Shown piece after piece: positions 21,186 to 44,530 of a DNA stretch of 58,198 nt (position 1 is the first letter of the stretch; each line of letters opens with the position of its first letter). The DNA is taken from the NCBI GenBank assembly GCA_034530615.2, contig JAVRCV020000002.1, positions 1 through 58,198 of the forward strand. The letters run 5' to 3'. A program made the position numbers and the translations under genes. The notes beneath the pieces are model-generated. The model had not been told where the DNA came from and did no database searches. It saw only the letters and a program-made list of their open reading frames with translations. The stretch comes from Aulosira sp. ZfuVER01 (GTDB lineage: Bacteria > Cyanobacteriota > Cyanobacteriia > Cyanobacteriales > Nostocaceae).

Positions 21186-21207
21186 ACAGCCTTTCTAAGA
21201 ATCAAAA

Positions 21208-21261
21208 AACCACAGATAAACACAAATAAATATCGGTGTGCATCTGTGTTTATCTGTGGTT
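21208..21261. repeat. Inverted decamer repeats forming a hairpin between convergent genes
   Basis: AACCACAGATAAACACA ... TGTGTTTATCTGTGGTT. Confidence 0.6.
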
Positions 21262-21369
21262 CTGAACCGCAATGGATGGCAACGCTTTACCCAAGTTTAG
21301 CAAGATCAAATAGTTCGCAAAGGACGATATGTCAGCGCCAAAAGAGCGATGGGATATTTTTTATGAGCA

Positions 21370-21822
21370 TTATTTAGAAGTAGAACTGACTGTTCCACTA
21401 GCAGTAGAAGAAATCCGATTCACAACAAATATATTGCGATTGCGGTTTCCGGCTCTTTCGTAGGTAAACTTGTCAACACCTTGAATAGTTAGGTAAACAC
21501 CTAGTCCACCAATCTGGCGTTGCTCTAAGGGCAAATCCATATCATCAGGAAGGGCTTGCTTGGTGGGGTCATAGTGTGCCCCTGTATCTTCAAGAGTAAT
21601 TGTTAAAGACTCATCTGCAAGCGTAGCTTGACAAACTACTTCACCTTCGCGCCCCGCTTCCTCGTAACCATGTACAATGATGTTGGTTGCAATTTCGTCT
21701 ACTGCCAGCCGCAGTCTGTAAGAGGTTTTTTTGTCCAAGCCTGCTGCTGCTGCTGATGCCATGACGTATTGTGCAATTGCGCTCAAAGAGTCGAGCGTTC
21801 CAGCGACCGTTAAAGCTTCCAT
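21370..21822 (-). CDS. RsbW/SpoIIAB-like Ser kinase (HATPase_c_2)
   Basis: LAVDEIATNIIVHGY (N box), EDTG (G1), GGLGVYL (G2). Confidence 0.92.
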   Translation of the reverse strand: MEALTVAGTLDSLSAIAQYVMASAAAAGLDKKTSYRLRLAVDEIATNIIVHGYEEAGREGEVVCQATLADESLTITLEDTGAHYDPTKQALPDDMDLPLEQRQIGGLGVYLTIQGVDKFTYERAGNRNRNIFVVNRISSTASGTVSSTSK

Positions 21823-21885
21823 AAACTATCTCGTTGATGCCAGTAATAATTTTTACTCAATAAGTAGAAGAAATTAGTGAATTCC

Positions 21886-23370
21886 TCACTGATTATTCTC
21901 TAATCGCTGCACAGCCAGCATGGTAATATCGTCAAACTGAGGAGCGTTATCCATGTAGGCAAACAAGTTGGTCTTGATCCACTCTAGAAGTTGACTAGCT
22001 GAGGCTGGCGGCGGTTGGAAAAGAGAGAGCAGTCGCTCGCTGGTGTATAACTTATTATCTGGCGCACGGGCTTCTGTGACACCATCTGTATAGCCAATCA
22101 AGATATCGCCAGGCTCAAGTTGTACCTGCTGAACTTTAAATTTCATATTGGGCATCATTCCCACTGCTGGCCCTGTAGGTTTGAGAGTTGCTTTCACACC
22201 TTCTGAACCGATCACAAATAATGGTTCATGACCGCCATTCACGTAGTCTATAATACCAGTACTAGGGTCTAATACTCCAAAGAACAGGGTCGCAAACATA
22301 CTCATCTGAGCGTGCTGTTGAGCAATATAGTTATTGATCAGTCCCACAGCTTTGAGGGCGTGAATTTGTGCCTCGTGATTGTCCAGATCCAGATCGTTCA
22401 AGCCTGCCAGTACTTCATCATCGCCAACAATTGCTAAATTACACAAAAGACTCTGTCCAGAGAAGACGCGAATCAGACTGCGGAACAAAGCCATAAACAA
22501 TGCAGCGCCTACACCTTTGTCGCACACATCAGCAATGACTAACCCTACATAACCCCCAGGAAGCATAAAAGAGTCATAGAAATCGCCTGCAACTTGACGC
22601 GCCGGATAAAAGCAAGCTGCAATCTCCCAATTAGGAAGTGTTGGTAAATCTTCTGGGAGAAAATCTCTTTGAATCTGTCTACCTTTTTCTAATTCATAGT
22701 CAAGTGCTTTTGAATAAGCTTCGATCTCTTGTTTTGCTTGATCTAGAAAATGGTAAGATTCCTCTAACTTTGCATACAATTCAGCATTTTCCAGCACTAG
22801 CGCTATCTCATTAGCCGTTTTTTGCATTAAGTTGGCTATTTCGCCGCTAAAGCGATTAGGCTCACTATGTAGCAAGGTGAGAATGCCTAGCAAAACTTCT
22901 TCTTTGAGAATCGGGACAGCTAATGCAGAGCGCACAGTGTAAGGCTGATTAGGAAACTGTAACCAGCGGTCATCGTTAATCGTATCGTCAATCAATCCAA
23001 TTTGGCGGTGACGATTTACCCAACCAGCCAGACCTTTGTCTAAAACGCTACCAATTAACCGAGAGCGCGTATCTTGTGCTGTGGTTTTCTGGGTAAGAAT
23101 ACTATCAGTGACTACTCCCTGGCTATCAAGTAAAAATAAACTGCCTGTTTCTGCCCCTGTGAGTTTGCAACAGACGTGTAATGCTTCCTCTAAGGTAATT
23201 TTTAGCATTTCCTCCTGTTCTGGAGAACGTGCCATTGCTACTACCTTTGCCAGTAGTTCTCTTTGAGCCTCAAAAGCAGCTTGTGCAGCTCTAAGTGCTG
23301 CTACTTCTTGGCGTAACGACTCCAGTTCTTCGTAATACGGTTGTTCCCTTAAAGGTTTATGAGTATCCAT
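21886..23370 (-). CDS. GAF plus SpoIIE/RsbU-type PP2C phosphatase (IcfG-like position)
   Basis: GAF (SALAVPI), VAGDFYD, ADVCDKGVGAA, NGGH, YTDGVTEA, DDIT. Confidence 0.93.
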   Translation of the reverse strand: MDTHKPLREQPYYEELESLRQEVAALRAAQAAFEAQRELLAKVVAMARSPEQEEMLKITLEEALHVCCKLTGAETGSLFLLDSQGVVTDSILTQKTTAQDTRSRLIGSVLDKGLAGWVNRHRQIGLIDDTINDDRWLQFPNQPYTVRSALAVPILKEEVLLGILTLLHSEPNRFSGEIANLMQKTANEIALVLENAELYAKLEESYHFLDQAKQEIEAYSKALDYELEKGRQIQRDFLPEDLPTLPNWEIAACFYPARQVAGDFYDSFMLPGGYVGLVIADVCDKGVGAALFMALFRSLIRVFSGQSLLCNLAIVGDDEVLAGLNDLDLDNHEAQIHALKAVGLINNYIAQQHAQMSMFATLFFGVLDPSTGIIDYVNGGHEPLFVIGSEGVKATLKPTGPAVGMMPNMKFKVQQVQLEPGDILIGYTDGVTEARAPDNKLYTSERLLSLFQPPPASASQLLEWIKTNLFAYMDNAPQFDDITMLAVQRLENNQ

Positions 23371-23407
23371 ATATTTGTCGCCGCGGTAGATAATAGGAGT
23401 CGTTTTT

Positions 23408-23457
23408 TATAGCATTTGTCATTTGTAGTTTCTCAAAAATGATTCGGGACTGCTATA
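23408..23457. mobile_element. 50-bp MITE-like element with TATAGCA terminal inverted repeats
   Basis: TATAGCA...TGCTATA; TA ends as in IS630-derived elements. Confidence 0.45.
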
Positions 23458-23555
23458 TTTGCCTGAAATGAACACTTAAATATAAGAAAAGCTAAAGGCT
23501 AAACAATTTTAGCCTTCAGACTTCATACTTATTCCTAATCCTCGACTGCTAGGAA

Positions 23556-23879
23556 TTAGGCAACTTTGTACTCGTCCTGTATGATTACGCTTTGGCTGAA
23601 ACCTGTTTTTTCTAGAGTGTCTATTACTTGTTCTTGTCCACCAACAACATAAATATCGGCATCAGCACCCATCTTTTGTTTGGCGAAAATTAGTACTCGC
23701 AGCCCAGCACTGGCGATATATTCTAGGTCTTGGATGAACAATACCAGACGCTTAACTCCGGCTTTAGCTGCATTTTCCACTTCTACTCGGAAAATGGGCG
23801 CGGAACTTGCATCTAGTTCGCCAGTAAGAGTAATTTTAGCGGTATCGCCATCAATTTCAAGAGTTGCACTAAAAGCCAT
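23556..23879 (-). CDS. STAS anti-anti-sigma-type phosphoprotein (RsbV/SpoIIAA-like)
   Basis: GELDASSA, YIASAGLRVL phospho-Ser motif. Confidence 0.92.
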   Translation of the reverse strand: MAFSATLEIDGDTAKITLTGELDASSAPIFRVEVENAAKAGVKRLVLFIQDLEYIASAGLRVLIFAKQKMGADADIYVVGGQEQVIDTLEKTGFSQSVIIQDEYKVA

Positions 23880-23956
23880 ATTTTTATTCTCCTTTTTCGT
23901 TAGATTTTGGTTTTTGATTGGTCTTTCGCCATTAGTGACTGACGAAAAACAAAGAT

Positions 23957-26074
23957 TTATTTGCCTACGAGAATCACTACTGAGCGATCGCCTAGTAAAA
24001 TTCCCTGTTGAGTGCCCAGTACAGGTTCTGTTCCAGGTTCCCAGCTAGCTTCTGCTGGATTCGCGCCAGTATTTGCAAACACGTGCCACTTCATACCTGC
24101 TGGTGGTTGGGGAAGTTCAAACCAGTGAGCTTCCCAGTGCATATTCATGGCAACGTAAATATAGTTATCTTTGACTGTGCCACCTTTAGCGTGTTTGCCA
24201 CAAAGCATAAAGGCTAGGGTACGGCTATTGTCAGACCAGTCTGCATTCCAAGCTTTAGTACCGTGCCAGGTAATATCAGCATAGCCACTACCAACATAAT
24301 CTCTATTTTGGAAGTGCCAGTGATTTCTCAGTACAGGGTGTGCATTGCGGAAAGCAATACAGTGCTTAGCAAAGTTGAATAGATCGGAGTTTGACTTGAG
24401 TAAATTCCAATCCAACCAGCTGAGTTCGTTGTCGTGACAGTAGGTGTTGTTATTACCTTGCTGACTTCTGCCGACTTCATCGCCCATCAGCAGCATTGGT
24501 ATGCCTTGGCTCACTAGAAGCATGGCGATCGCATTTTTAATCTGCCGTTGGCGTAAGGCATTGATACCTGCATCCTCTGTCCAGCCTTCTGCACCACAGT
24601 TCCAACTATCGTTATCGTTGGTGCCGTCGTTGTTGTTTTCTCCGTTGGCTTCGTTATGCTTGCCGTTGTAGGAAACTAAGTCAGCTAGGGTAAAACCATC
24701 ATGGGCGGTGATGAAATTAATCGAGGTAGCAGGTGCCCTTCCTGCCCAAGCATAGAGATCTGGTGAGCCTTGCAGCCGTTGTGCCATATCTCCGACTCGC
24801 CCAGGTTCGCCTTTGAGGAACTTGCGAATACCATCGCGGTACTTACCATTCCACTCAGCCCAGCGACCAAAGGCGGGGAACGAGCCTACTTGGTACAAAC
24901 CGCCTGCATCCCAAGCTTCCGCAATCAATTTACATCTAGCGAGAATCGGGTCAAATGCTAAAGTTTCCAACAACGGTGGATTTGCTAGCGGTGCGCCCCA
25001 AGGGTCGCGACCGAGAATTGATGCCAAGTCAAAGCGGAAGCCGTCGATGTGATACTCTGCTGCCCAGTAGCGCAGACAGTCCAGCACAATATTCCGCACA
25101 ATTGGGTTATTACAATTGAGCGTGTTGCCACAACCACTGAAGTTAAAGTAGTAACCTTCAGGGGTAAGCATATAATATGTTTTATTGTCAATACCCCGAA
25201 AAGAAATCGTTGGCCCGTGTTCATTACCTTCCGCAGTATGGTTGAAGACCACATCTAAAATAACTTCAATGCCATTGGCATGGAGTTCTTTAACCAGTTG
25301 CTTCAACTCATCAACCTGCATCCCAAACTTGCCTGTGGCTGCATACCCCGCCTTGGGTGCAAAGAAACCAACAGTGCTATAGCCCCAGTAATTTAGTAAG
25401 GTTTCACCTGTCTGGGGATTGGGACGAGAATTTTCAAACTCGTCAAACTCATATACAGGCATGAGTTCGATGCAGTTTACACCCAACTCTTTGAGGTAAG
25501 GAATTTTCTCGCGAATCGCCGCAAAAGTTCCGGGATGCTTCACCCCTGAAGATGAATGGCGGGTAAAGCTGCGGACGTGCATTTCGTAAATAATCAAGTC
25601 TTCTGGCGGCAGTTCCAGCGGACGCTCTGATTCCCAGTCAAAGTCGTCAAAGGCGATCCGGGCGCGATGGTGGTAGATATCACTCCAATCTGGCGTGACT
25701 CCCCAAACATCCCGTCCGCCAATAATTTTGGCGTAGGGGTCTAAGAGAATTTTGCTCTTGTCAAACCAGTGGCCAGCCTTGGGGTCGAATGGGCCATCCA
25801 TGCGATAGCCATATTCGATTTCTTCGTAATCCAGGTCAAAAACCACCATGCAAAAAACATTCCCAATCCGAAACTCTTCAGGAAAAGGAATTTCTGCAAA
25901 CGGTTCGGGCTGATGTTTCTTAAACAGCACTAAAGAACAGGATTTAGCGTGACTAGAAAAGATGGAAAAGTTCACCCCTCTGGGAACCAGCGTGGCTCCA
26001 AAGGGGAAAGGTTTACCCCGACGCAGCTTAAAGTCGCCGTAGGTATGGGTGGGATTAACGTCGATGCGCTCCAT
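23957..26074 (-). CDS. glgX: Glycogen debranching enzyme/isoamylase (GH13)
   Basis: NYWGY, DVVFNHTAEG, DGFRFDLAS, AEAWD, TAHDGFTL, NNNTYCHD. Confidence 0.97.
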   Translation of the reverse strand: MERIDVNPTHTYGDFKLRRGKPFPFGATLVPRGVNFSIFSSHAKSCSLVLFKKHQPEPFAEIPFPEEFRIGNVFCMVVFDLDYEEIEYGYRMDGPFDPKAGHWFDKSKILLDPYAKIIGGRDVWGVTPDWSDIYHHRARIAFDDFDWESERPLELPPEDLIIYEMHVRSFTRHSSSGVKHPGTFAAIREKIPYLKELGVNCIELMPVYEFDEFENSRPNPQTGETLLNYWGYSTVGFFAPKAGYAATGKFGMQVDELKQLVKELHANGIEVILDVVFNHTAEGNEHGPTISFRGIDNKTYYMLTPEGYYFNFSGCGNTLNCNNPIVRNIVLDCLRYWAAEYHIDGFRFDLASILGRDPWGAPLANPPLLETLAFDPILARCKLIAEAWDAGGLYQVGSFPAFGRWAEWNGKYRDGIRKFLKGEPGRVGDMAQRLQGSPDLYAWAGRAPATSINFITAHDGFTLADLVSYNGKHNEANGENNNDGTNDNDSWNCGAEGWTEDAGINALRQRQIKNAIAMLLVSQGIPMLLMGDEVGRSQQGNNNTYCHDNELSWLDWNLLKSNSDLFNFAKHCIAFRNAHPVLRNHWHFQNRDYVGSGYADITWHGTKAWNADWSDNSRTLAFMLCGKHAKGGTVKDNYIYVAMNMHWEAHWFELPQPPAGMKWHVFANTGANPAEASWEPGTEPVLGTQQGILLGDRSVVILVGK

Positions 26075-26117
26075 TGTTCTTTGGTAGTGAGTGTTAAGAC
26101 AACAAGAGTGGGGAGAA

Positions 26118-26276
26118 AGAGCGATCGCATCTAAATTATCAATAAAACCTCTTGCATAATTCCTAATAATCGGCGTTTATCGGCGTTTATCAGTATTTAT
26201 CGGCGGTTAAATCTCCGCTTTTGGAACTTTTACAAAAAGTCTATTGCTCATTTCCAAATTAAGATGCGTTTGCCCT
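26118..26276. mobile_element. Nested MITE-like elements with internal decamer repeats
   Basis: Outer imperfect TIR AGAGCGATCGCATCTAAATT / AATTAAGATGCGTTTGCCCT; inner AATAAAACCTCTTGCA / TACAAAAAGTCTATT; core ATCGGCGTTT-type repeats. Confidence 0.5.
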
Positions 26277-26318
26277 CAAAGAGGGAATTAAGTTTTCACT
26301 TAACTCCCTCTCTCTTGA

Positions 26319-26726
26319 TTAAGCAGGTAGAGCGTGAACCTTAAGCTGGAGAGCTTCTAAGCCCGATTCTACGGTGTCGCTCAGGCTGAAGAAGTTGAGA
26401 AACCCAGTAATCGACATCGTATCTTGAATTTCTGGGGCAACTCCTACCAACACCAGATTTCCATCTTGACCAGCAAACTGCCGATGTAGCAATAGCAATG
26501 TGCGTAAGCCAGCACTGGACATATAAGGCACATTGGTTAAATCCAGCAGCAATTTACTGTTTGGTTTAACCAATGGTAAAACTTGCGCTTGCACCTCAGG
26601 GGCAGTTTTGCCATCGACATCGCCATCTAGTTCCACTACAGTCACTTCTTCGTGTACTGCTGGAGGTGCATCGCCGTTTGCAGTGCTAAGTGCAGTTACT
26701 TGCAGTGTCTTGATAATAATCTCCAT
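26319..26726 (-). CDS. Second STAS phosphoprotein, with an N-terminal insertion of about 17 aa
   Basis: GDVDGKTA, YMSSAGLRTL; insertion TALSTANGDAPPAVHEE. Confidence 0.92.
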   Translation of the reverse strand: MEIIIKTLQVTALSTANGDAPPAVHEEVTVVELDGDVDGKTAPEVQAQVLPLVKPNSKLLLDLTNVPYMSSAGLRTLLLLHRQFAGQDGNLVLVGVAPEIQDTMSITGFLNFFSLSDTVESGLEALQLKVHALPA

Positions 26727-26746
26727 AATTAATTACTTCCCGCAGA

Positions 26747-28573
26747 CTACGCAGTAGGGACAATTTGAACTTTGACTTTGACTTGCGCCTTGGTTTCTGG
26801 TAGTTTCACCGTCAAGCCGTTGGCGTCAAAATCGGTGTATGGTTGGTCATCGATCCAACAAGCACCAATCTTGATGCTACCAGGAGGCAAGATATCAGGC
26901 TGTACCCGCAGGATGTTGTCCTTAAATGCACCTGGTTGAGGCTTGAAGTAGAGGTCTAGTGGTTGCTTGGTAATTAGCAGATTAGTATAGACTACTGCCA
27001 AATAGCACAGTTCTGTTGAGTGGTAGGCACTCATGGAGTGAGAGCCTTTGAAGCGTTCGTTACCCAACAGGTAGGGTAAGCCGTTGGCTAGAACGTTGAA
27101 GTAAACTGCACCGTCATCATGATCCAAGAAGAAGGCATTGTAGAAAGCTGCGGCTTCATGAGCTTGACGTTTGTATTCTGGCTTATCTAAGATACCGTGC
27201 AGGATTAGGTAAGCAAGAATAGCTTGTTCTTGTTGCCACCAAGCTTTGCGATCGTGCCAAACAAAGCGATGCTGTTCTTCACCTTCACCGAGAACACGTT
27301 CAACTACATCGTACCAGCCGCCTCTTTGTTGGTCGCTTCCAACTTTAGGCATGAGGTAGCCAATTTTCTCAGCTAGTTGTACGTACTCATCTTTGGGCTT
27401 GAGGGAATTCATCCGCATCAAGTTCCAAGCAATTTTCAGGTTATGTCCGACAACGGCGCGGTTTTGTTGCCAACCCCATGTTTGGTCTTTGCTCCAGTCT
27501 TCAAAAAACTTCTCTTGCACAAAGGGGCTGTCGTCGTAGTCTGGGAAATATTTGGCGATCGTGTCAAAGGTATATTCTAGGAAGTCGGCGTATTTCTTCT
27601 CGCCTGTTGCTAGCCATAAATTGATCAGGTAGGCGGGCGCATGGTCGCCTACAGAGTTCCAGTTTTTGCGAGCGCAGTTCCGACCTAGAGATTCGGCACG
27701 AGGGTCGAGGGTAATCGGGTCAATATGGGAGAAATAGCCGCCGCCTTCTTTATCTAGGAAGAATTTATCGAAGAGATCGACAGTCATTTCCGCATCTTTG
27801 AGAATGCGGGGATCGCCTGTAATTCTATAGGTTTGAATGGGGCCAGCTAAGGCGTAAATCTGTTCGTAGGCGGGGATAGCGTCGTAGTCGTCACTAAACT
27901 CCGAGGTGAGCAGCTTTTGTTCGCGGCGTCCGGTAACTTTAATGCCGTGATACCAATAGATGAGGTTTTCATCGGGATCGTAGAAGCGCATGTGTTCGCG
28001 CAGATACTCTGTCCCTCTTTCGGCTGCTTCGAGGAAGCGGTCTTCGCCTGTTAACAGAAAAGCTGAAGCGAAACCATAAACCAGACGCGAAATCGTATCA
28101 GTTTCTTGCAAAAAGTCGTCGCGCTTTTTGCCACCGGCTAAGTGTAGATAAGTGCGGTATTCGTGGTAATCAATTTCGCGATCGGGATAGTGGAACTGCC
28201 ATCTCAGGTAACTGTCAGCAATCGAACGTATCTGCTTAACCCACCAATCTGGTTCTTCGTGGCGATAGACACCTGGTTTATCGCTAGGAAAAACTAAGGA
28301 TTTGGCTTCAAATTTGTAGTCATCTCCCTGAGGATAAAAGATACCGTAAACGAATACGTGCTGACCAGGTACTAGGAGTTTTTCAATTTCACCAGTGCAA
28401 TCTCTATAAGACTCTTCCAGGTTTTGCGCGATTCTGGCATAAACAGTCGGGGTGAGATATGCTCTATATTCCCGTTCATCTGAGGTTTTAATGCCAAAAG
28501 ACTTATCGCTAGAGTTAAAGTCAGTGACGTAACCAGTGATTGTGTCTGAGAAAGAGAAGCTGATTTTGTTCAT
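26747..28573 (-). CDS. AGE/cellobiose 2-epimerase superfamily protein with N- and C-terminal extensions
   Basis: SRLVYGFASA, VGHNLKIAW, WWQQEQA, KGSHSMSAYHSTEL motifs of the (alpha/alpha)6 epimerase fold. Confidence 0.85.
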   Translation of the reverse strand: MNKISFSFSDTITGYVTDFNSSDKSFGIKTSDEREYRAYLTPTVYARIAQNLEESYRDCTGEIEKLLVPGQHVFVYGIFYPQGDDYKFEAKSLVFPSDKPGVYRHEEPDWWVKQIRSIADSYLRWQFHYPDREIDYHEYRTYLHLAGGKKRDDFLQETDTISRLVYGFASAFLLTGEDRFLEAAERGTEYLREHMRFYDPDENLIYWYHGIKVTGRREQKLLTSEFSDDYDAIPAYEQIYALAGPIQTYRITGDPRILKDAEMTVDLFDKFFLDKEGGGYFSHIDPITLDPRAESLGRNCARKNWNSVGDHAPAYLINLWLATGEKKYADFLEYTFDTIAKYFPDYDDSPFVQEKFFEDWSKDQTWGWQQNRAVVGHNLKIAWNLMRMNSLKPKDEYVQLAEKIGYLMPKVGSDQQRGGWYDVVERVLGEGEEQHRFVWHDRKAWWQQEQAILAYLILHGILDKPEYKRQAHEAAAFYNAFFLDHDDGAVYFNVLANGLPYLLGNERFKGSHSMSAYHSTELCYLAVVYTNLLITKQPLDLYFKPQPGAFKDNILRVQPDILPPGSIKIGACWIDDQPYTDFDANGLTVKLPETKAQVKVKVQIVPTA

Positions 28574-29111
28574 CTTTACTGTTACAGAAGTAAAAGGGTA
28601 GATATTGTTGCTAAATCTAAAACTCGACTGAATGTAGCCCTTTAGTTAAATTTCGCAGGTTTGTTACTGATAGAAACGTCGGAGTAATTGTTTGTAATAG
28701 TGCTTGAAGTAATGAAGATCTAGCACTGCTATCCTCTGTATTTTGAGGACAATTTTAATTAACCAACGTCACTTTCTGAATGATGAGCGAAGATATCACT
28801 TTTCGCACTCTAGCTGTCTGTTTATTCGGCAATATCAAGGTGAATTCTTGGAATTGCACTGGCTGAAGACAAAAGACATTCTACCTGGTTTTTGTTTGGT
28901 TGTGTAGCAAAAACAGAAGATAGTCTGGTAAAAGTGCTGAAGGCGAAATAACTTAATATCTCTACATAAATATATACGCCTGAATTCGGAGAAATTATGC
29001 AAATTAACTTTGAAACTCAGCAAAATTAATTGGTGTTGGGAAATTTATATCGTTTGTACTTCTGTAAACTCGTAAAATAGTTTTTCATGAGTAGTTGATG
29101 TTACCGTTCTG

Positions 29112-30299
29112 ATGAACAAAAAATTATGGCAGCCGCCAAGATTACGGATTGGCGAAGATCGGGGAGAAGAAAGACGTGCTACCTGGCTGGAGTTGTTTTA
29201 CGATCTGATATTTGTGGTAGCGATCGCAGAATTAGCTCACAATCTCAGCAAAGATGTTTCTGTGATAGGGGTTTTGAGTTTTATTGCCCTATTTACACCA
29301 ATTTGGTCTTGTTGGTTAGGAGCAACTTTCTACGCCACGCTGTTTGATACGGATGATTTAAGCGATCGCTTATTAACCCTCCTGCAAATGACCTTGATTG
29401 CGGCTCTCGCAGTCAATGTGCATCACGGACTCAGTACCTCTGCTGTGAGTTTTGCTATTTCTTACATAGGCGCTCGCAGTATTCTCATTCTTCAATTTCT
29501 CATTGCCAGATATCATGTTCCAATAGCTCGCCCCCTACTCAATCGCTATATATTGGGCTTTAGTCTTGGTGCTAGTTTTTGGTTAATCTCGCTGTTTGTC
29601 CCAGCACCTTGGCGTTTTGTACTCTGGGCAATTGGGATGATTGTAGAATTTGTTGCGCCCTTAGGTACAGGTCGTTTTGCTACTCAAATCACACCAGATA
29701 TTTCTCATATGCCAGAACGACTGGGACTTTTTACCATGATCGTTTTGGGAGAGTCTGTTGCTGCTGTGGTGAGAGGTGTAGCTCAAAAAGAATGGATTAT
29801 TTCATCTACAATAGTTGCTCTTTTAGGCATGATCGTGGCTTTTAGCTTGTGGTGGCTTTACTTCGATAGCATCGATGGCTCACCACTAGAGACCATGAAA
29901 GAGGGTAGAATTAATATCTTTCTTACTTGGCTTTATTCTCACCTGCTCTTAGCTATGGGTTTGGCAGCAACAGGGGTAGGAGTTGAGCATCTAATTTTCA
30001 AAAGTGCAGTTAATGTTTTACCAGACAATGAACGCTTACTTTTGTGCGGTGCTGTGACACTGTGTTTAGCGATTTTAGCGGTAATTAATTTAACAACCTG
30101 TATTTTGGAAAAACAACGACAAGGCAAAATTTTGAGTGCTTATCGTTTAGGAGCAGGAGCTTTTGTGTTCTTCCTGGGGATTGCTGGTAAGAGTTTAGCT
30201 CCTGTAGCTTTAATTGCATTGGTTGCAGCTGCTTGTGCGATCGCAGTTGTTCTAGATTTGTTCGGTAAAAGCCGATATCAAATCATGTCTGAGGAGTAG
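29112..30299 (+). CDS. Low temperature requirement protein A (LtrA) family membrane protein
   Basis: ATWLELFYDLIFV, HMPERLGLFTMIVLGESV, WWLYFD. Confidence 0.92.
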   Translation: MNKKLWQPPRLRIGEDRGEERRATWLELFYDLIFVVAIAELAHNLSKDVSVIGVLSFIALFTPIWSCWLGATFYATLFDTDDLSDRLLTLLQMTLIAALAVNVHHGLSTSAVSFAISYIGARSILILQFLIARYHVPIARPLLNRYILGFSLGASFWLISLFVPAPWRFVLWAIGMIVEFVAPLGTGRFATQITPDISHMPERLGLFTMIVLGESVAAVVRGVAQKEWIISSTIVALLGMIVAFSLWWLYFDSIDGSPLETMKEGRINIFLTWLYSHLLLAMGLAATGVGVEHLIFKSAVNVLPDNERLLLCGAVTLCLAILAVINLTTCILEKQRQGKILSAYRLGAGAFVFFLGIAGKSLAPVALIALVAAACAIAVVLDLFGKSRYQIMSEE

Positions 30300-30309
30300 C
30301 TTTGCATAG

Positions 30310-30329
30310 GGTTGTGTGTTTACACAACC
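30310..30329. terminator. Hairpin between convergent ltrA-like and DJ-1 genes
   Basis: GGTTGTGT-gttt-ACACAACC. Confidence 0.45.
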
Positions 30330-30344
30330 GCTTTGCTTTCATCC

Positions 30345-30980
30345 TCAAACAGGCTGAACAACTTCCCGATCGCGAGAGCTAGTTTTCTCAATTTCTTTGA
30401 CAAACTCTGCCATGAATTCGTCTACCACGCCCGGATGCTTGCCTGTAATTAAATTACCATCTATCACTAAATCAGCAGTTACATCGTTATCATAAACAAC
30501 GTCTGCGCCAGCATTTTCGACATCACAAATAATATTATGGGCACAGGTTACTTTCCGATCTTTCAGTAAATCTGGATCGGCACAGAAAAGCCACAAACTG
30601 TGGCAAATAGTCCCTAGTTTCACATTATCTGTTGCCATTGCTTTTCTCAAGAAAGCAACTGCTGGAGCTTGATTTTTTTGACCTTTTTTCACATTTACCT
30701 GATATCTCAGGCGATCCATTGCATAAGCTCCGATGCAAATGATGCCTTTATAATCAGCCGGGTCAATATCATTAACTTCGGTAGTAACTGTGACATGAAA
30801 TTCTATTTGGTCATTTTCGGGGTTAGAGCCGAAGTGTAGTTCTTTATTACCCCACAAATGAGAAATATATTCTACTTCATAACCATGTTCGGGGAAGTAC
30901 TCATTGAAGCGCCGATATTCTGTAGCATCAAAATGTTCTTCAATAAGTACACCTATTTTGCCTTTAATTGCTTTTGTCAT
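30345..30980 (-). CDS. DJ-1/PfpI family protein (glyoxalase III/deglycase-like)
   Basis: EEHFDATE, nucleophile ICHS, DGNLITG. Confidence 0.9.
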   Translation of the reverse strand: MTKAIKGKIGVLIEEHFDATEYRRFNEYFPEHGYEVEYISHLWGNKELHFGSNPENDQIEFHVTVTTEVNDIDPADYKGIICIGAYAMDRLRYQVNVKKGQKNQAPAVAFLRKAMATDNVKLGTICHSLWLFCADPDLLKDRKVTCAHNIICDVENAGADVVYDNDVTADLVIDGNLITGKHPGVVDEFMAEFVKEIEKTSSRDREVVQPV

Positions 30981-31099
30981 GAGGTGTTACCGATTATTTG
31001 TTGTTTTAATTTCTCATTGAAAGCAGAGGGAGTTTATTAGATTCTACATTAAACTCACCTCTGCTGAATTAGTCACAATTGGCTAATTCCAAGACCATT

Positions 31100-34000
31100 T
31101 TAAAATTTCAGATTCAACTGAGAGGGATCTGGATATACGCGCCATTCATAGATGCGATCGCCATCAAAGCGATAGATATCTGTACAAGGAACTTGAATAA
31201 AGCGCTTGTCAACTTTGTTGACATAATTCGCATCCATTTCCAGAATCACAGTGTTACCAACTTCCCATGTTCCTCTAGCATTATGGGTTGTCAGTTTCAG
31301 AACTTTGTAGATATTAACCAAAAAGTCTCGACAAGCTTCAGGGCCTACTACAGGGTCGTTAGCACCAACTTTGTAGAGTAAGTTGGGTGTGAAGAAGCTC
31401 ATGAATTCATCCCAATTTTCAGCGTGCAATGCTTCATACATTTTCCCAATAATTGTTAGCAAGGAACCGTTGCTAGCAGGTGCTTTCGCAGCTTGGGGTT
31501 GCACTTTTTCTGTTTGGAATACTGGACTAATGTCCATGTAAATTCTCAGTTCTTGGACTTTATCCCCCTTGAAGATGATAGTGTCACAACAAGGCAGTCG
31601 GAAAACTTTACCATCATGACGGATGTAGGTAACTTCCATTTCACAGATCACTGTGTCATCCTGTTCCCACATATGTTTGATGTGGTGGTAACATTGGGCA
31701 ACTGTGTTCAAGAAGTCAGTTGAACTTTCTCTAATTCCTTGAGGGCCATAAGCAACTGGGAAGTTACTAAATTGGTAGTGAGCATCTTCGGTGTAGAACT
31801 TGACAAAGTTTTCTACATTCATCGATTCGCCTGCTTCAAACATCCGTCTGACAATTTCAGACTTGGTTCCAGGACGTGTGAGTGACTGAGTCATAGTTTT
31901 GTCATCCTTGTTTGTGATATTTTCTACACTTTGTTTTAGTTGTGCGACCGCCAGACGGATATTTTCTGGTTTAGCTGTCTCAATAAATCCTTGTGCATCT
32001 TTGTGCTGTAGTGCACTTTCACTAACAGGTTGCAAATCAATTGTGAAAGTTACTATCGGTAAAGCACCAGGTTCTTGAGGTGGATACAGATAATTAATAA
32101 ACCGACCTGTAAATAGAGGGTGATCTACAAGATTAATCGTGAGACTTCCCGCTTGGCGATCGATGGTAACTCTTTGCTTCATCTCCATGCCGGGCATTTT
32201 GACTTCGCGCAGAACTCCATCGCTATAACGTTCTAAAATGGGAAACTTATCAGTGTAAGCTTGCTCCATCCAAACTTGCCAAATCTTCTCTACTGGAGCA
32301 TTAATAGTAGAACTATATGTTCCATACAAACGGTGGTTTGTATTGGCAGTGATGGCGGAAGTTGTCGGTGCGGAATTATTGTAAAACCAGTAGTTTGTGC
32401 CGTTAGCTTGGTTATATTCCTTTTGGGCAATGCTAAATCTTTCTTTAGCTTTCCTTCTAACTTGGTTAAATTCTAATTGTTCACCATTTGGACCTTTACA
32501 GTAGAATAAAGACCAACCGTCAAAATCGGCAATAAAGTCTACCTTGGCATATTTTAGAGGCGCATTTTTTCTCGCAGTTTCCGAATCAATATGAATAATT
32601 CGGTTAGCAACGACGTTAGTCAGTCCGCGACTTTGGCATTCATCTTCTAACATCTTGGCAAAGTCATTGATATCCACATCATCCTTTACATAAAAAGAAA
32701 GGTGTGGTGCGTTGACATAACCAATGCCTGAAGGTATCTTACCAATACAATTTGGTGCTTGAGAGTTTAATTTAGCATCTCTAAAATGGATGAGTTCAAC
32801 ACAAGTGTTACCAAAGGAAATAAATCTTACATCCAAGGCTTCTTGTGAGCCATCTCTAATATTAGGGACACCTATGGTTTTGGGATTAAGACCTTGCTTC
32901 AATGCTTCTAATTCTTCTTTTTGAAAAAGCAGATTGTGCAAGTCTTCACCAACAAATCCATCTCCACCAATTGCGACTTTTCCACCCAACACGTCAATGT
33001 AAAATTCTAGGGCTTTTGTCATATCATTAACGGTTATGCCTACGTGTTGCAAACCTTGGAGATAATGACCTAAACTGCTAGATTTTCCGTTGACCTGGCT
33101 AGGCATAAGAGATACTACGTCCTCTTTTAATTGATTGGTGGCTCCATTTTGAATCAGCGACGCTACTTGTCCGTTCATCAGAGATACTATGTCCTCTTTT
33201 AATTGATTAGTGGCTCCTACACTTTGGATAAGCGACGCTACCTTGGAACTGCGTTGACCAGCTAAGGTGATCTGACTGTTGTATACAAAGGTATAAGCCG
33301 TTCTTTCGGGAAATGGCTGAATTTGTTTGATATATCTAGCTGCATCTTGAGTTGCAGCTGCATACTCAGAAGAAGCAAAAAACTTTTCTCTTTCCAAATG
33401 ATTAGCAAAAGCAATTTCATAAGCTGCATGATATTGCTTGGCTTCTGGTTCGTAATGACTTACCCCAGCTGCATCGGGACGGGAATTATCTACTTCTTCA
33501 AATAGGTGCAAGCGCAACTTCAGTACTGCATCGCTACTGCTGACTTTGGGAGCAAAAGTCTCGCTCAGATAGCGACGGAATGCTTCTGTACTGACGCTAT
33601 CAGCTTTTTTGACTAAGACGTGAAATTTGATGGCTCCGACTTCGCCGTTGGGGTCGCCAGTGGGGATGCGGTCGATATATGTGATGGAATTGCCAGGGTT
33701 GGTGTTGTAACCGATGGCTTTACGGAACAAATTATGTTCGTCATCCATCAAAATAGCTGACGCTTTAAACCAGGTATTACGGTCAGCTTCACTTTCAAAA
33801 GTTAACTCTGCAATCCCATCAAAGTTATCTTCTGCATCCCATCTGTAATCCAACCCGGCGATTTCTGGCCACAACCCACCTTCGTTATGCGCTACATGAA
33901 ACTGCCAGTATTGATATTGTCCTGGTAGTCTGGCGCAGACTGGGCCGTGTACGTCTTTCCAATAATTATCAAAAAGCTCTAGGGAAATGGACTCCCGTTT

Positions 34001-34465
34001 CCACAGGAGTACATAAAAAGCTACTTTTCCTTGACGATCCCTTGCTGAATAATCAGCTTGGTTTGATTTTTCGGGCGCTGAAACCATTGCTGCTTTCCTT
34101 GGTATGTAATTGACATTGTCAAAAATCTGATTCAGGGCGGCGAAGCAAGGCGCGACCTTATTAAAGCCCGCATAAACGCATAAGAACAGCAGCAGTTCTT
34201 CAATTTCATCGCGGGTGGCTCCTTGTTTGAGAGCCATATTCACATGGGCGGCGAAGGGGTTTCCTGGACCTCTATGATCCTGATTGACTACATCAATAGC
34301 GATGGTAATCAGAGCCTTAGTTTTTTGGTCAATTAGTGGTAAACCCCAAGCTTCACCTGCTACCCGAATTACAAAGTCACCAAACTTGGGATTGATTTGT
34401 TTTAAATTCTTTTGCAGTTCTGGGTCATCGAGGACGGCATTTTTAACTGCTAACTCCAGTTTCAT
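31100..34465 (-). CDS. 1121-aa fusion: CMD-like, tandem EthD-like, VOC, SRPBCC/AtaL-like, two SnoaL/NTF2 domains
   Basis: CMD (GEAWGLPLIDQKTKALIT...GATRDEIEE); EthD (FDNYWKDVHGP, DGIAELTFES); VOC (QHVGITV...ELIHF...HLSF...EQLEF); SRPBCC (INAPVEKIW); SnoaL (FYTEDAHY...ELRIYMD and FFTPNLLY...EWRVYPD). Confidence 0.8.
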   Translation of the reverse strand: MKLELAVKNAVLDDPELQKNLKQINPKFGDFVIRVAGEAWGLPLIDQKTKALITIAIDVVNQDHRGPGNPFAAHVNMALKQGATRDEIEELLLFLCVYAGFNKVAPCFAALNQIFDNVNYIPRKAAMVSAPEKSNQADYSARDRQGKVAFYVLLWKRESISLELFDNYWKDVHGPVCARLPGQYQYWQFHVAHNEGGLWPEIAGLDYRWDAEDNFDGIAELTFESEADRNTWFKASAILMDDEHNLFRKAIGYNTNPGNSITYIDRIPTGDPNGEVGAIKFHVLVKKADSVSTEAFRRYLSETFAPKVSSSDAVLKLRLHLFEEVDNSRPDAAGVSHYEPEAKQYHAAYEIAFANHLEREKFFASSEYAAATQDAARYIKQIQPFPERTAYTFVYNSQITLAGQRSSKVASLIQSVGATNQLKEDIVSLMNGQVASLIQNGATNQLKEDVVSLMPSQVNGKSSSLGHYLQGLQHVGITVNDMTKALEFYIDVLGGKVAIGGDGFVGEDLHNLLFQKEELEALKQGLNPKTIGVPNIRDGSQEALDVRFISFGNTCVELIHFRDAKLNSQAPNCIGKIPSGIGYVNAPHLSFYVKDDVDINDFAKMLEDECQSRGLTNVVANRIIHIDSETARKNAPLKYAKVDFIADFDGWSLFYCKGPNGEQLEFNQVRRKAKERFSIAQKEYNQANGTNYWFYNNSAPTTSAITANTNHRLYGTYSSTINAPVEKIWQVWMEQAYTDKFPILERYSDGVLREVKMPGMEMKQRVTIDRQAGSLTINLVDHPLFTGRFINYLYPPQEPGALPIVTFTIDLQPVSESALQHKDAQGFIETAKPENIRLAVAQLKQSVENITNKDDKTMTQSLTRPGTKSEIVRRMFEAGESMNVENFVKFYTEDAHYQFSNFPVAYGPQGIRESSTDFLNTVAQCYHHIKHMWEQDDTVICEMEVTYIRHDGKVFRLPCCDTIIFKGDKVQELRIYMDISPVFQTEKVQPQAAKAPASNGSLLTIIGKMYEALHAENWDEFMSFFTPNLLYKVGANDPVVGPEACRDFLVNIYKVLKLTTHNARGTWEVGNTVILEMDANYVNKVDKRFIQVPCTDIYRFDGDRIYEWRVYPDPSQLNLKF
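33104..33241 (-). repeat. In-frame tandem duplication (about 72 nt) in the EthD-VOC linker
   Basis: VASLIQSVGATNQLKEDIVSLM followed by VASLIQNGATNQLKEDVVSLM. Confidence 0.85.
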
Positions 34466-35819
34466 CTCACGCGGTAGTGATCAATCTAATTAGTTCGGTA
34501 GGAGCATAAACATCACGGTAGAAAGTTAGTTGCTCTGTTTTCAGATAGCAAGCACCGCGATGACCGCGACGTACCCATGTCACATTACCTTTGGCCAGAG
34601 TTTCGTTGGTTTCGTCGTCCACACACTTCCACTCAAAGTAAGTATGCTCACCATAAAACATGACAATTGGCCAGCACATGGTAACGCCTGGTTGTGCAAT
34701 CAATGCCCACCAGTGCTTTTCTCTTTCTTTTTGTTGTTCTAAACCGCGATAGGGGCCGTCTTGACAGAAATAAACTAAGTCATCACGATATTCTCCAGTT
34801 AGGATATCGCCTCTTCCTTGTCTCAACGCCTCACAATGAGTAGGCCACCACTCTCTGTTTTCTCTTTCAATTTGTTCGAGGGTGTAATAGGGGCCAATTT
34901 CGGGCAACTTTGATTCTTTCATTGCCACAATTTTTTCTGCATCCTCGATCAGTTTCTTGGCTACATAAGAGCTAACAAGTCCTGGACGAGAATAGTCCGC
35001 CGACAAACCTTCGTAATAATTGGTGCGCTTTTTCGTTGGTTGTGGCTTGCTTTGGGCGGCTTGCGCAGCAGAAGAAGTATGACCGTTGGTTTGTGGGGTG
35101 TAGGGATTGTAATTGAGCATGAGAGATTCTATATCCTCCTTAAGTTGATTGACTGCGCCAATTTCTGTAATCAGTTCTGCTACCGAGGAACTACGCTGAC
35201 CAGCTAAGGTCATTTGAGAGTTATATACAAAGGTATAAGCCGTTCTTTCGGGAAATGGCTGAATTTGTTTGATATATTTAGCAGCATCTTGAGTTGCCGC
35301 TGCATACTCCCAAGAAGCAAAAAACTTTTCTCTTTCCAGATGATTGGCGAAAGCAATTTCATAAGCCGCATGATATTGCTTGGCTTCTGGTTCGTAATGA
35401 CTTACCCCAGCTGCATCAGGACGAGAATTATCTACTTCTTCAAATAGGTGCAAGCGCAACTTCAGTACTGCATCGCTACTGCTGACTTTGGGAGCAAAAG
35501 TCTCGCTCAGATAGCGACGGAATGCTTCTGTACTGACGCTATCAGCTTTTTTGACTAAGACGTGAAATTTGATGGCTCCGACTTCGCCGTTGGGGTCGCC
35601 AGTGGGGATGCGGTCGATATATGTGATGGAATTGCCAGGGTTGGTGTTGTAACCGATGGCTTTACGGAACAAATTATGTTCGTCATCCATCAAAATAGCT
35701 GACGCTTTAAACCAGGTATTACGGTCAGCTTCACTTTCAAAAGTTAACTCTGCAATCCCATCAAAGTTATCTTCTGCATCCCATCTGTAATCCAACCCGG
35801 CGATTTCTGGCCACAACCC
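33483..35819. repeat. 395-bp identical direct repeat (33483-33877 = 35425-35819) within about 800-bp paralogous EthD regions
   Basis: Base-by-base comparison at offset 1942 showed no mismatch in the core; the flanks show scattered differences. Confidence 0.9.
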
Positions 35820-36029
35820 GCCTTCGTTGTGCGCTACATGAAACTGCCAGTATTGATATTGTCCTGGTAGTCTAGCGCAGACTGGGCCATGTACATCTCT
35901 CCAATAGTTATCAAAAATCTCTAAGGAGATTCCTTGTCGTTTCCACAAGAGTACGTAGAAGGCTACTTTTCCTTTGTGATCCCGTGCTGAATAATCAACT
36001 TTTGTTGCCTTGTTGATTGTTGAAACCAT
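34467..36029 (-). CDS. EthD-like domains fused to a C-terminal NTF2-like domain
   Basis: The first ~300 aa are nearly identical to the EthD part of the downstream fusion. The C-terminal ~190 aa (EYRDDLVYFCQDG...YFEWKC) look NTF2/SnoaL-like. The stop is 1 nt before the next ATG. Confidence 0.75.
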   Translation of the reverse strand: MVSTINKATKVDYSARDHKGKVAFYVLLWKRQGISLEIFDNYWRDVHGPVCARLPGQYQYWQFHVAHNEGGLWPEIAGLDYRWDAEDNFDGIAELTFESEADRNTWFKASAILMDDEHNLFRKAIGYNTNPGNSITYIDRIPTGDPNGEVGAIKFHVLVKKADSVSTEAFRRYLSETFAPKVSSSDAVLKLRLHLFEEVDNSRPDAAGVSHYEPEAKQYHAAYEIAFANHLEREKFFASWEYAAATQDAAKYIKQIQPFPERTAYTFVYNSQMTLAGQRSSSVAELITEIGAVNQLKEDIESLMLNYNPYTPQTNGHTSSAAQAAQSKPQPTKKRTNYYEGLSADYSRPGLVSSYVAKKLIEDAEKIVAMKESKLPEIGPYYTLEQIERENREWWPTHCEALRQGRGDILTGEYRDDLVYFCQDGPYRGLEQQKEREKHWWALIAQPGVTMCWPIVMFYGEHTYFEWKCVDDETNETLAKGNVTWVRRGHRGACYLKTEQLTFYRDVYAPTELIRLITTA

Positions 36030-36596
36030 GCTTGCTGTCCTTTGTCCACACTATGGTTAAACTCTCTTGATGTCACACTCTACTTATGTCACTCTGGGTA
36101 ACAAAAAAGCTCAACTTTAGGGAAAATTAAGGTCTTAGTATTGTCATCTCTACGTTAGTATGAGGTGACAAAAAATGCGTCAGCGAAAACCTCAAATTCT
36201 CTGATGAAAGTGCCTCAAACTGGCTACGACAGCTATCACCATCATCAATATCAAGAGATTTTTCTCGTTTGGGAAGCGAGCGATTGGTGGCGATCGCATT
36301 CGGATCTGAATAGAAACAACATTTTCTTCGATCCTGTAATATACGAGCCTGCGAGAGAGTGTTTGGAATATCCTAATGAAGGCACTTTAACCGCTACTTC
36401 CTGACTCCTCACCTTCTCAAAATCCTGCTCGTTGTCCCTTAGTATGTAGTCTTTCCCGTAATAAATGAGGGAAATAAGATGGTCTTATAGGCAGGCTAAA
36501 GATGATGTCTCTTTAATCTCTGCATATTTCCATCGCACTCACTTTCTGGGACTACATCTCGGTATTTACTGATTTCGGAAAATCCTAAATATTTTC

Positions 36597-36944
36597 TTAG
36601 GATGGTGTATCCAGTATTTCGTTTAGTACGCCAAAGCAGCCAGCTACCTTATTGAAACCTGCGTAAACACACACAAACAATAGCAGCTCTTCAATCTCCT
36701 CACGAGTTGCACCTTGCTTGAGCGCCATATTGACATGAGCGCCAAAAGGATTACCCGGGCCAACCTGATCCTGATTGACTGCATCAATAGCGATCGTAAT
36801 CAGAGCCTTAGTTTTTTGGTCAATTAATGGCAAACCCCAAGCTTCACCTGCTACCCTGGTCACAAAGTCGCCAAACTTGGGATTGATTTGTTTTAAACCC
36901 TCTTGAAGTTCTATATCATCTAAAACCGCATTTTTGTATTTCAT
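36597..36944 (-). CDS. Carboxymuconolactone decarboxylase (CMD/AhpD-like) family protein
   Basis: Close paralog of the N-terminus of the 1121-aa fusion; HVNMALKQGATREEIEE; no CxxC. Confidence 0.88.
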   Translation of the reverse strand: MKYKNAVLDDIELQEGLKQINPKFGDFVTRVAGEAWGLPLIDQKTKALITIAIDAVNQDQVGPGNPFGAHVNMALKQGATREEIEELLLFVCVYAGFNKVAGCFGVLNEILDTPS

Positions 36945-43553: not shown

Positions 43554-43680
43554 TGAGAGCTATGTTTTTGGCATTTGACCCATAAGTACATAGTGATGTT
43601 TTTGCGTGTTTGTTCTTCTAGCAATACTTCACAAAAGTACAATCTCCAATCCAGTCGCAACACTTTTATTAGGAGTAAAC

Positions 43681-43998
43681 ATGGCTACAACAATTAACGA
43701 AAAAGATGGATTACTGACTGTAATTAACGTATTTACAGTTGAACCCGACCAGCAGCAAACCTTAGTAGATCACCTAGTAAGTAACCTCGCAACAGCTACG
43801 AAGCAAGAAGGCTTTGTCTCAGCTAATATCCACAAAAGCTTGGACGGTACGCGGGTGATCAACTATGCGCAGTGGAAGAGTAAGGAAGCTTTAGAATTGG
43901 CTTTACAAAATCAAGAATTTATGGCTCCCGTGAAGGTAGCTGTAGAACATCCCCATGATTTCCATATGTATGAGGTCGTTCATACAATACAAGCATAG
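43681..43998 (+). CDS. Antibiotic biosynthesis monooxygenase (ABM) family protein
   Basis: VINVFTVEP...GFVSANIHKSLDGTRVINYAQWKS; AGGAG at 43671 supports ATG 43681. Confidence 0.88.
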   Translation: MATTINEKDGLLTVINVFTVEPDQQQTLVDHLVSNLATATKQEGFVSANIHKSLDGTRVINYAQWKSKEALELALQNQEFMAPVKVAVEHPHDFHMYEVVHTIQA

Positions 43999-44412: not shown

Positions 44413-44530
44413 CGGAGCGAAGCGACGTGACGTGACTCTCTAATGCCCTCAAGTGACAGTCTAAAAATTCAAGTATCAATTTGATTGTTAAGTTATCAGC
44501 GCATTTAGTGTGATGTGTGAGAGAAAGCAA

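Follow-up and report, generated by a model that had tools for sequence, protein, structure and literature searches.

What do the enzymes of the icfG operon make? Since the 1990s a link between this operon and carbon regulation has been recognised in the main model cyanobacterium, and in Synechocystis sp. PCC 6803, where it corresponds to the cluster slr1852-slr1862 (Beuf 1994, Shi 1999 and Gonzalez 2001, cited in PMC12329169; Kurkela 2025), the papers searched describe functions only for its kinase, phosphatase and STAS proteins, its GlgX having looked inactive. Here we approach the question through a relative of that cluster in Aulosira sp. ZfuVER01, carried on contig JAVRCV020000002.1 within a window, meaning the whole stretch of DNA analysed, of 58,198 nucleotides (nt; positions 1-58,198). 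The first-pass annotation of this DNA had supposed the enzymatic pathway to be uncharacterised, and the full-text literature, taken apart from subscription journals and supplements, indeed held no description of the cluster's chemistry, product or pathway. We consider it probable that the cluster encodes a single dedicated pathway that passes through a reactive carbonyl intermediate. That alpha-glucan ends are its substrate seems to us an evenly balanced proposition, and at somewhat less than even confidence we put forward the fuller reading of one alpha-glucan-fed pathway, in which an enzyme of the AGE superfamily likely makes a reactive deoxy-dicarbonyl and a set of fusion proteins would yield a small ring compound.

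Pfam and NCBIfam profiles, run on the translated open reading frames of the window, recover the gene string AGE-like, STAS, GlgX, STAS, PP2C and RsbW-like kinase, preceded by CMD and others. In PCC 6803, slr1853 is annotated as CMD, slr1855 as AGE-like, slr1856 as STAS, slr1857 as isoamylase, slr1859 as STAS, slr1860 as phosphatase and slr1861 as kinase (PMC12329169; bioRxiv 2021.07.28.454097; PMC3564720). These annotations match the window's string with synteny kept, and the two clusters share CMD, DJ-1 and all six downstream genes in the same order, an NTF2-like domain upstream (here called c16) and matching residue positions in the kinase. The minus-strand run proposed earlier, interrupted by ltrA on the plus strand, was likewise borne out, with the reading frames in place on their strands and each named domain confirmed. 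For the PCC 6803 proteins a minimal locus (L089, genome G167) served as stand-in, with the order c16-CMD-DJ-1-AGE-STAS-GlgX-STAS-PP2C-kinase; it has nine counterparts in the window, 43-83% identical and in nearly the same order, so that kinship by similarity and synteny holds against this stand-in, the named PCC 6803 sequences not being the comparison set. Eight of the nine L089 genes find their best match in the Aulosira genome at this locus, the exception being c16, for which a paralog on contig C80 ties. The L089 kinase carries E43, N50, G106, G107 and G109 as listed for Slr1861, with L108 where the paper has M108. Its GlgX begins as encoded by the published slr1857 forward primer (PMC4911114), a check confined to that primer, the reverse one being that of slr0237 and mismatching the L089 GlgX C-terminus. 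L089 also has a divergent arm of ABM, cupin-like, xylose-isomerase-like and hydrolase genes, and a salt-stress study describes, next to slr1852-1862, an operon on the opposite strand that is repressed along with it (bioRxiv 2021.07.28.454097).

Judged by gene content and order, then, the locus is an enlarged icfG-type cluster. Unlike the icfG cluster, it has c16 fused to an EthD pair, an extra six-part fusion of 1121 amino acids (aa), an ltrA insertion, a shorter GAF-PP2C protein, a divergent oxidase-ABM-porin arm and two satellite copies elsewhere in the genome. At the locus itself, the only part of the genome searched for it, no slr1862-like gene follows the kinase, the next gene being a convergent AraC regulator. 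The nearest named relatives of the AGE protein are from Nostoc and Calothrix (94-98% identity).

Accessory modules behind the AGE core

A scan of one genome per species returned at least 597 relatives of the AGE core, and the best 80 of these, which we analysed, span cyanobacteria, Chloroflexota, Bacteroidota, Pseudomonadota, Spirochaetota, Deinococcota and others; the cluster is therefore not peculiar to this genome. When 301 genomes were sampled evenly from the window's phylum, 28 held the AGE gene. The 108 loci compared below comprise the best 80 and 28 stretches from 27 other AGE genomes, many of them cut short; GlgX is found in 101 and DJ-1 in 84. Among the 301 sampled genomes the accessory families are nested within the AGE-bearing set: c16 is confined to it in 20 of 20 cases, VOC in 8 of 8, the EthD pair in 10 of 11 and the multicopper oxidase in 4 of 4. 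The nesting extends to genomes G213 and G279, where c16 is unlinked to the cluster and the AGE gene is nonetheless present. EthD, VOC and SnoaL domains thus do accompany the core elsewhere, and CMD-EthD-VOC core fusions occur in 13 of the 108 loci, the complete six-part form in 6.

Where c16 is lacking, something else usually fills the slot: eight AGE genomes have no c16, and in seven of them pieces of an alternative module sit at the locus. This type I module comprises two DJ-1-like (ThiJ-like) proteins, a second, glyoxalase-I-like VOC family, an MBL-fold protein, a GMC alcohol oxidase-like protein, a thiamine diphosphate (ThDP) enzyme and other SnoaL families, the ThDP enzyme being nearest to benzoylformate decarboxylase and the GMC protein to alcohol oxidases, both under the equivalog cut-offs. 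Type II is the window's own NTF2-like/EthD/VOC set, which occupies the same slot. Scored by marker families, with CMD and EthD excluded because each gave weak matches on both sides, 53 of the 108 loci have type I only, 34 type II only, 21 neither and none both. On an AGE tree (FastTree, 87 rows, midpoint root, with unlabelled loci and one split gene excluded) the module label changes nine times, against at least 17 changes in each of 500 shuffles; module type follows kinship, yet has been swapped repeatedly. Nor are the modules simply diverged copies of one another: in a profile comparison c16 showed no relationship to the SnoaL families of type I, and the two VOC families were connected only weakly. 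Nif11-domain proteins occur with both module types (L002, L088 and L094; L042, L055, L067 and L104), in some cases as part of a SnoaL-SnoaL-ABM fusion, in others as separate pairs next to GMC/ThDP genes.

Two carbonyl-handling kits behind one core point to one shared intermediate. Both modules handle carbonyl compounds, and the dehydratase, cyclase and aromatase types of type II, like the oxidase and decarboxylase of type I, offer plausible onward routes. The main rival is that the cluster cleans up after glycogen: AGE would be an ordinary epimerase or isomerase on glucose or maltodextrin ends, while DJ-1, VOC and the small enzymes detoxify stray dicarbonyls of glycogen mobilisation. The type I module does resemble glyoxalases I, II and III together, and ethanol stress induces slr1853 (annotated as carboxymuconolactone decarboxylase) and slr1854 (PMC3564720). 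A generic detoxification set would not, however, be expected to be confined to AGE genomes or to exclude another set, and a biosynthetic role is suggested by the aromatase/cyclase-type and many SnoaL domains, by the oxidase of surface type, by the MFS transporter that two loci carry and by a satellite with an acyltransferase-like gene.

In the window the CMD, EthD, VOC, SRPBCC and SnoaL/NTF2 domains lie on three minus-strand genes. The six-part fusion (31100..34465, 1121 aa, assigned by Pfam and fold match) consists of CMD (residues ~8-116), an EthD pair (~136-432), VOC (~463-695), an SRPBCC/helix-grip domain (711-859) and two SnoaL/NTF2 domains (865-985 and 996-1119). The SRPBCC domain was missed by Pfam; in the predicted model, residues 711-859 match the ZhuI aromatase/cyclase of the helix-grip/SRPBCC fold (Z 14.5, root-mean-square deviation 3.5, 146 residues aligned), and its homolog in locus L007 has a weak AtaL/Polyketide_cyc2 match. 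VOC metalloenzymes of the glyoxalase I/epimerase type bind their metal through His/Glu/His/Glu ligands, and this set is present here as H474, E557, H588 and E665, in a part of the model of low confidence (predicted local distance difference test score, pLDDT, <50); a sequence search with the VOC part gave weak matches only. Fold lists for the 1121-aa model are dominated by its SnoaL domains, so that CMD and EthD were barely probed by fold, and epoxide-hydrolase matches of the SnoaL domains were taken as fold likeness only. A 72-nt internal duplication lies at 33104-33241, in the linker after the EthD pair.

One nucleotide upstream ends the 520-aa gene (34467..36029), with two Pfam EthD domains and, as its C-terminal 187 aa, c16. 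The ESM Atlas groups c16 with SnoaL-like clusters (0.96); it has 934 homologs and shares 78% identity with the gene that opens L089. The 520-aa protein is the probable Slr1852 counterpart. The EthD pair is duplicated across both fusions (~0.9 kb, 91% DNA identity). An assembly artefact was ruled out as the source of this duplication by Nostoc sp. 106C (L001), which has the same two-gene arrangement at 95% protein identity. The free-standing CMD/AhpD-fold protein (36597..36944, 115 aa, PF02627), the Slr1853 counterpart, is 70% identical to that of L089. AhpD peroxidases carry a CxxC pair, which is absent from both CMD copies, and the score against PcaC is 44.8 bits where the cut-off is 155.7; CMD is thus identified as neither PcaC nor AhpD.

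The AGE-fold enzyme and the route it may begin

The cluster core is a 608-aa (alpha/alpha)6 enzyme (26747..28573, minus strand, PF07221), counterpart of Slr1855, and its barrel with a conserved Arg and two His places it in the AGE superfamily. The predicted model (pLDDT 86) shows the barrel plus extra N- and C-terminal beta domains, and its closest folds are mannose isomerase (Z 38.7), cellobiose 2-epimerase (37.2) and glucose 2-epimerase (34.6). GH76, the transaldolase AprG (25.9), GH88/105 and a lyase rank lower, at Z 21-27, the lyases and unsaturated-glycoside hydrolases of the list lying at Z 21-25. The barrel is shared with cellobiose 2-epimerase, mannose isomerase, mannose/glucose 2-epimerase, YihS and GlcNAc 2-epimerase at Z 31-39, whereas the window's protein has ~200 extra residues in its two beta domains and 13-20% identity to these enzymes, and falls far under the NCBIfam cut-offs.

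Within the subfamily R163, E237, D310, H311, H377, K380, H512 and H518 are invariant. Mapped by sequence alignment rather than coordinates onto the residue roles given for epimerases (PMC6333288), the epimerase frame is retained (R163, N306, H377, W445 and H518), with Lys380 in place of the epimerase Glu after the first catalytic His, Ser513 in place of the sugar-stacking Trp five residues before the last His, either D310 or H311 at the third His position, and E157 and E237 as extra conserved acids. On this alignment the active site of the subfamily is remodelled, Glu to Lys, and the protein matches neither the cellobiose 2-epimerase nor the GlcNAc 2-epimerase equivalog (25 vs 800 and 20 vs 600 bits), in line with Lys380 and Ser513. 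The nearest folds, mannose isomerase and the 2-epimerases, favour the clean-up role described above, but the replacement of a catalytic-site Glu by Lys is hard to square with an ordinary epimerase, and together with the nesting and exclusivity of the modules it leads us to hold that role, a plain isomerase with a detoxification kit, rather unlikely.

The AGE subfamily occurs in nature fused to DJ-1. The window's DJ-1/PfpI protein (30345..30980, minus strand; counterpart of Slr1854, 83% identical to that of L089) scores above the cut-off of PF01965 and below that of the PfpI subfamily, and keeps Glu21 and Cys126-His127. In 29 of 32 longer proteins with this DJ-1 type the fusion partner is an AGE domain of the same subfamily (35-40% identity) that has the motifs EQIY, KNWNSxGDH and GHNLK, cce_0274 of Crocosphaera ATCC 51142 being an example; the other three are DJ-1-GMC-like, DJ-1-tautomerase and c16-DJ-1. 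That last protein, P0152, comes from the green alga Mesostigma viride as a single gene model with a Ser/Ala-rich, acid-free, transit-peptide-like N-terminus; to judge from its sequence it is possibly a plastid remnant of the pathway. Five longer AGE relatives include two AGE-DJ-1-ThiJ-like proteins, two with a signal-like N-terminus and repeats, and one fragmentary VOC/GlgX/AGE record. The two with repeats, P0153 and P0155, carry four tandem ~125-aa units with weak, sub-cut-off likeness to the starch-binding modules X25 (E 3e-4) and SusE/F (E 0.008).

A reactive AGE product would explain the fusion of AGE to DJ-1, and the fusions lend support to the reactive keto-sugar intermediate of the first-pass annotation. 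What we observe is which genes are present and in what order, their folds and fusions, their nested co-occurrence and the substitutions in the active site; every reaction in the scheme that follows, that intermediate included, we infer from them. The isoamylase-type GlgX would free short chains, debranching multiplying the reducing ends on which AGE-superfamily enzymes act. The AGE enzyme would then isomerise the terminal glucose from aldose to ketose by the enediol chemistry normal to its superfamily, and, aided by the new Lys380 and the extra acids, eliminate the 4-linked chain from the beta position ('peeling'). Its product would be 4-deoxy-2,3-hexodiulose, with a 3-deoxyosone as near alternative. 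The former is hydrated microthecin and a precursor of hydroxyacetylfuran or cyclopentenones, and C6 products of peeling include microthecin-type pyranones and hydroxyacetylfuran. Non-enzymatic 1,4-peeling through the ketose to a 4-deoxyosone is documented (PMC13220311), and microthecin and hydroxyacetylfuran co-occur in a fungus (PMC13765081). DJ-1 would take the intermediate directly from the AGE enzyme, the order running from AGE to DJ-1 to c16 to optional EthD, VOC and SnoaL steps; the CMD/EthD/VOC/SRPBCC/SnoaL fusions would carry out its dehydration and ring closure, giving a small cyclic compound, this end product would be oxidised at the cell surface by the multicopper oxidase, and the kinase and phosphatase would gate flux via STAS2, besides the published SigC role. 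The anhydrofructose/microthecin pathway of fungi and red algae uses a glucan lyase and aldos-2-ulose dehydratase. It offers a functional analogy only, the turning of a storage glucan into cyclic keto-sugars by elimination (compounds in PMC13765081): Pfam annotates no GH31 lyase or aldos-2-ulose dehydratase at our locus, and the attack proposed here is at the reducing end and by an unrelated fold.

Of a true lyase step by the AGE enzyme we are doubtful. Still more speculative is the scheme at its widest, in which Slr1855-type AGE proteins would be reducing-end alpha-glucan lyases, a new enzyme class catalysing the peeling known from food and pulp chemistry and, together with an ISA1-like debranching enzyme, opening an unrecognised third exit from glycogen in many bacterial phyla, with two interchangeable branches: an oxidative and decarboxylating type I branch, a type II branch dehydrating and cyclising towards a secreted redox-active ring compound, and the c16-DJ-1 protein as its remnant in a green alga.

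Glycogen, the switch and the evidence against

Published work weakens the claim that the cluster is glycogen-linked. The window's GlgX/isoamylase-type GH13 protein (23957..26074, minus strand, 705 aa), counterpart of Slr1857/GlgX2, scores 717.6 bits on TIGR02100 (cut-off 640.9) and starts MERIDV where the slr1857 forward primer encodes MERIDI (PMC4911114). Slr1857/GlgX2 itself is reported to have shown no debranching in a coupled in vitro assay and its knockout no phenotype, and the authors suggest another specificity (bioRxiv 10.1101/2022.11.21.517384); in a separate study slr1857 was run on activity gels, and its text names slr0237 alone as pullulan-active (PMC4911114). One could accordingly take GlgX2 for a transglycosylase or glycosidase of some other glucoside, the cluster making or recycling a glycosylated small molecule, and the carbohydrate-type porin that travels with the cluster would suit such a role. 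Yet the window's GlgX passes its family cut-off, keeps the Asp/Glu/Asp catalytic motifs in alignment with plant ISA1, has its closest solved structures in ISA1 (663 bits), TreX (558) and E. coli-type GlgX (438), and is the sole GlgX above cut-off in a genome that is 99.99% complete. Activity might moreover need a partner missing from the assay; isoamylases of this broad type that are oligomeric depend on partners (PMC12516185). We regard the reading with another glucoside as improbable. A second glgX fragment at C1:78773-79546 holds the C-terminal third with one internal stop. This GlgX is closer to plant ISA1, its top-scoring solved structure, than to the solved GlgX proteins of bacteria, a point of possible relevance to how plant isoamylases arose.

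The switch proteins appear intact. The RsbW/SpoIIAB-like Ser kinase (21370..21822, minus strand, 150 aa, PF13581), counterpart of Slr1861, is 43% identical to the L089 kinase, for which it is the best match in its genome, and its E43 and G105-G106-x-G108 lid agree with the residues listed for Slr1861 to within one position. Next to it on the same strand lies the GAF-PP2C (GAF-SpoIIE) phosphatase (21886..23370, 494 aa, PF13185 and PF07228), an IcfG counterpart with a shorter N-terminus, which is 52% identical over 264 aa to the L089 phosphatase and nearly equalled by a paralog on contig C41 (286 vs 285 bits). Both STAS proteins, STAS2 (23556..23879, Slr1859 counterpart) and STAS1 (26319..26726, Slr1856 counterpart, 54% identical to L089 STAS1), are on the minus strand and above the TIGR00377 cut-off. 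The putative phospho-acceptor of STAS2, Ser57, is invariant in 50 sequences, and by sequence the acceptor Ser motifs and kinase motifs seem preserved throughout. Slr1861 acts against SigC and phosphorylates Ssr1600, and because the output published for it is this Ssr1600/SigC partner switch (PMC12329169), the 'phosphorylation-switched pathway' of the first-pass annotation stands unproven. The one observation that may point to direct enzyme control through STAS2 is fusion: in seven loci the AGE domain is fused to a STAS tail, all seven tails scoring higher on the STAS2 profile. None of the seven has the kinase in the stretch examined, two stretches ending near the fusion, and at the acceptor position, read by eye, one tail has Ser, one Thr and five Gly, Ala, Asp or Glu.

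The published switch suggests in turn that the locus might be a co-regulated stress island, its switch serving SigC-type transcription control and its enzymes being functionally unrelated neighbours. Besides the activities of Slr1861, regulation of the icfG operon as a block (PMC12329169; bioRxiv 2021.07.28.454097) speaks for this. Unrelated neighbours would, however, hardly be joined in AGE-DJ-1, AGE-STAS2, c16-DJ-1 and DJ-1-GMC fusions, show nested presence even when unlinked, or keep the same core across many phyla, and we think this very improbable. Least probable of all is an AGE-fold aldolase or transaldolase that splits or re-joins sugars and so supplies DJ-1 and the accessory enzymes with C2-C4 carbonyl fragments: the barrel recurs in the transaldolase AprG and a Schiff base might form on the invariant Lys of the active site, but AprG stands far below the epimerases (Z 25.9 vs 38.7) and the near-obligate GlgX partner would be left unexplained.

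Several observations weigh against the alpha-glucan-fed lyase pathway that we favour. The nearest solved folds of the AGE model are all epimerases or isomerases and none is a lyase. DJ-1 proteins prefer 2-oxoaldehydes whereas the proposed 4-deoxy compound has the form of a 2,3-diketone, and we may therefore have the exact intermediate wrong. The starch-binding matches of the repeats in the longer AGE relatives lie under the Pfam cut-off, and a profile search of solved structures recovered no SusE/F; no AGE-GlgX fusion was found save the fragmentary record P0157. The inactivity of the counterpart Slr1857/GlgX2 and its knockout without phenotype weaken the glycogen link, and the demonstrated output of Slr1861 is Ssr1600/SigC signalling, not the cluster enzymes. 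As for the nesting, the eleventh EthD pair is a weak match (32%) in a genome without the AGE gene (G231), and related genomes are not independent samples, so we claim no p-value for these counts.

Extent of the cluster and what it may mean

The boundary first drawn at 36944 needs correction, plus-strand genes carrying the cluster on to 46348. A multicopper oxidase with FG-GAP repeats and a DUF4114 tail (39178..43476, assigned by Pfam, all four copper motifs present) belongs to a family found in 4 of the 301 genomes, and in the other three it adjoins this cluster. An ABM-family protein (43606..43998, PF03992) is 75-76% identical to ABM proteins within the L004 and L074 clusters and 61% to a SnoaL-fused one in L002. 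An OprB/SomB-type porin (44510..46348) is 61-66% identical to porins directly upstream of CMD in L081, L088, L093 and L094, and at most 46% to the full-length paralogs of its own genome. On this evidence oxidase and ABM are cluster members, the porin a probable one. The LtrA membrane protein inserted on the plus strand (29112..30299, PF06772) seems an occasional passenger, occurring in 4 of the 108 related loci. LtrA/TMEM175-like membrane proteins just upstream of the AGE gene or module in L044, L046, L058, L052, L056, L090 and L091 suggest a transport or channel slot.

Two satellites lie elsewhere in the genome, an SDR gene with EthD-c16 (C80:88093-90520, L109) and a PapA-like acyltransferase with VOC-SRPBCC-SnoaL-SnoaL (C49:27024-30103, L110). 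Both are divergent from regulator-like genes with near-identical N-termini, the one on C49 encoding an NTPase-WD40 protein. In Bacteroidota, 10 loci have an nSTAND1-WD40 gene after the kinase. Off the cluster, a GMC oxidoreductase 46% identical to the type I GMC protein adjoins an unannotated 524-aa gene (C66:74070-75626, L111).

A single transcript is doubtful because of gaps of 567 nt between CMD and EthD-c16 and of 1771 nt, holding ltrA, between DJ-1 and AGE; promoter and terminator scans stayed at chance level (40 vs 38.0 and 20 vs 16.8), leaving the operon limits undefined. In five RNA-library runs small shares of the region appear: contigs in four runs cover parts of 21000-36900 and are nearly nil over 37600-40900, and since they belong to relatives they are uninformative on transcription, strand and operon structure. 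Beside the kinase lies a divergent pair of azoreductase and AraC genes (19518-21185) that is not conserved in the related loci examined. Short repeats with a 10-nt unit occur at 21208-21261 and 26152-26208, a hairpin lies where the AraC and kinase genes converge, and an exact 53-nt tandem duplication (37420-37525) sits in the AT-rich 2.2-kb gap between CMD and oxidase, likely a divergent promoter region.

The icfG locus family itself was already known. New here are the accessory domains nested with AGE, the two exclusive modules, the AGE-DJ-1 fusions with a remodelled site, and the oxidase-ABM-porin extension, and this comparative evidence casts the 'unknown proteins' of icfG as one ordered pathway. 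Nesting, module exclusivity, AGE-DJ-1 fusions and the changes in the active site open a question that is 30 years old to direct test. Should the AGE enzyme prove a plain isomerase, the result would be a modest extension of a known operon; if the lyase reading is true, it would mean a new glycogen exit and new enzyme chemistry in a widespread bacterial cluster.

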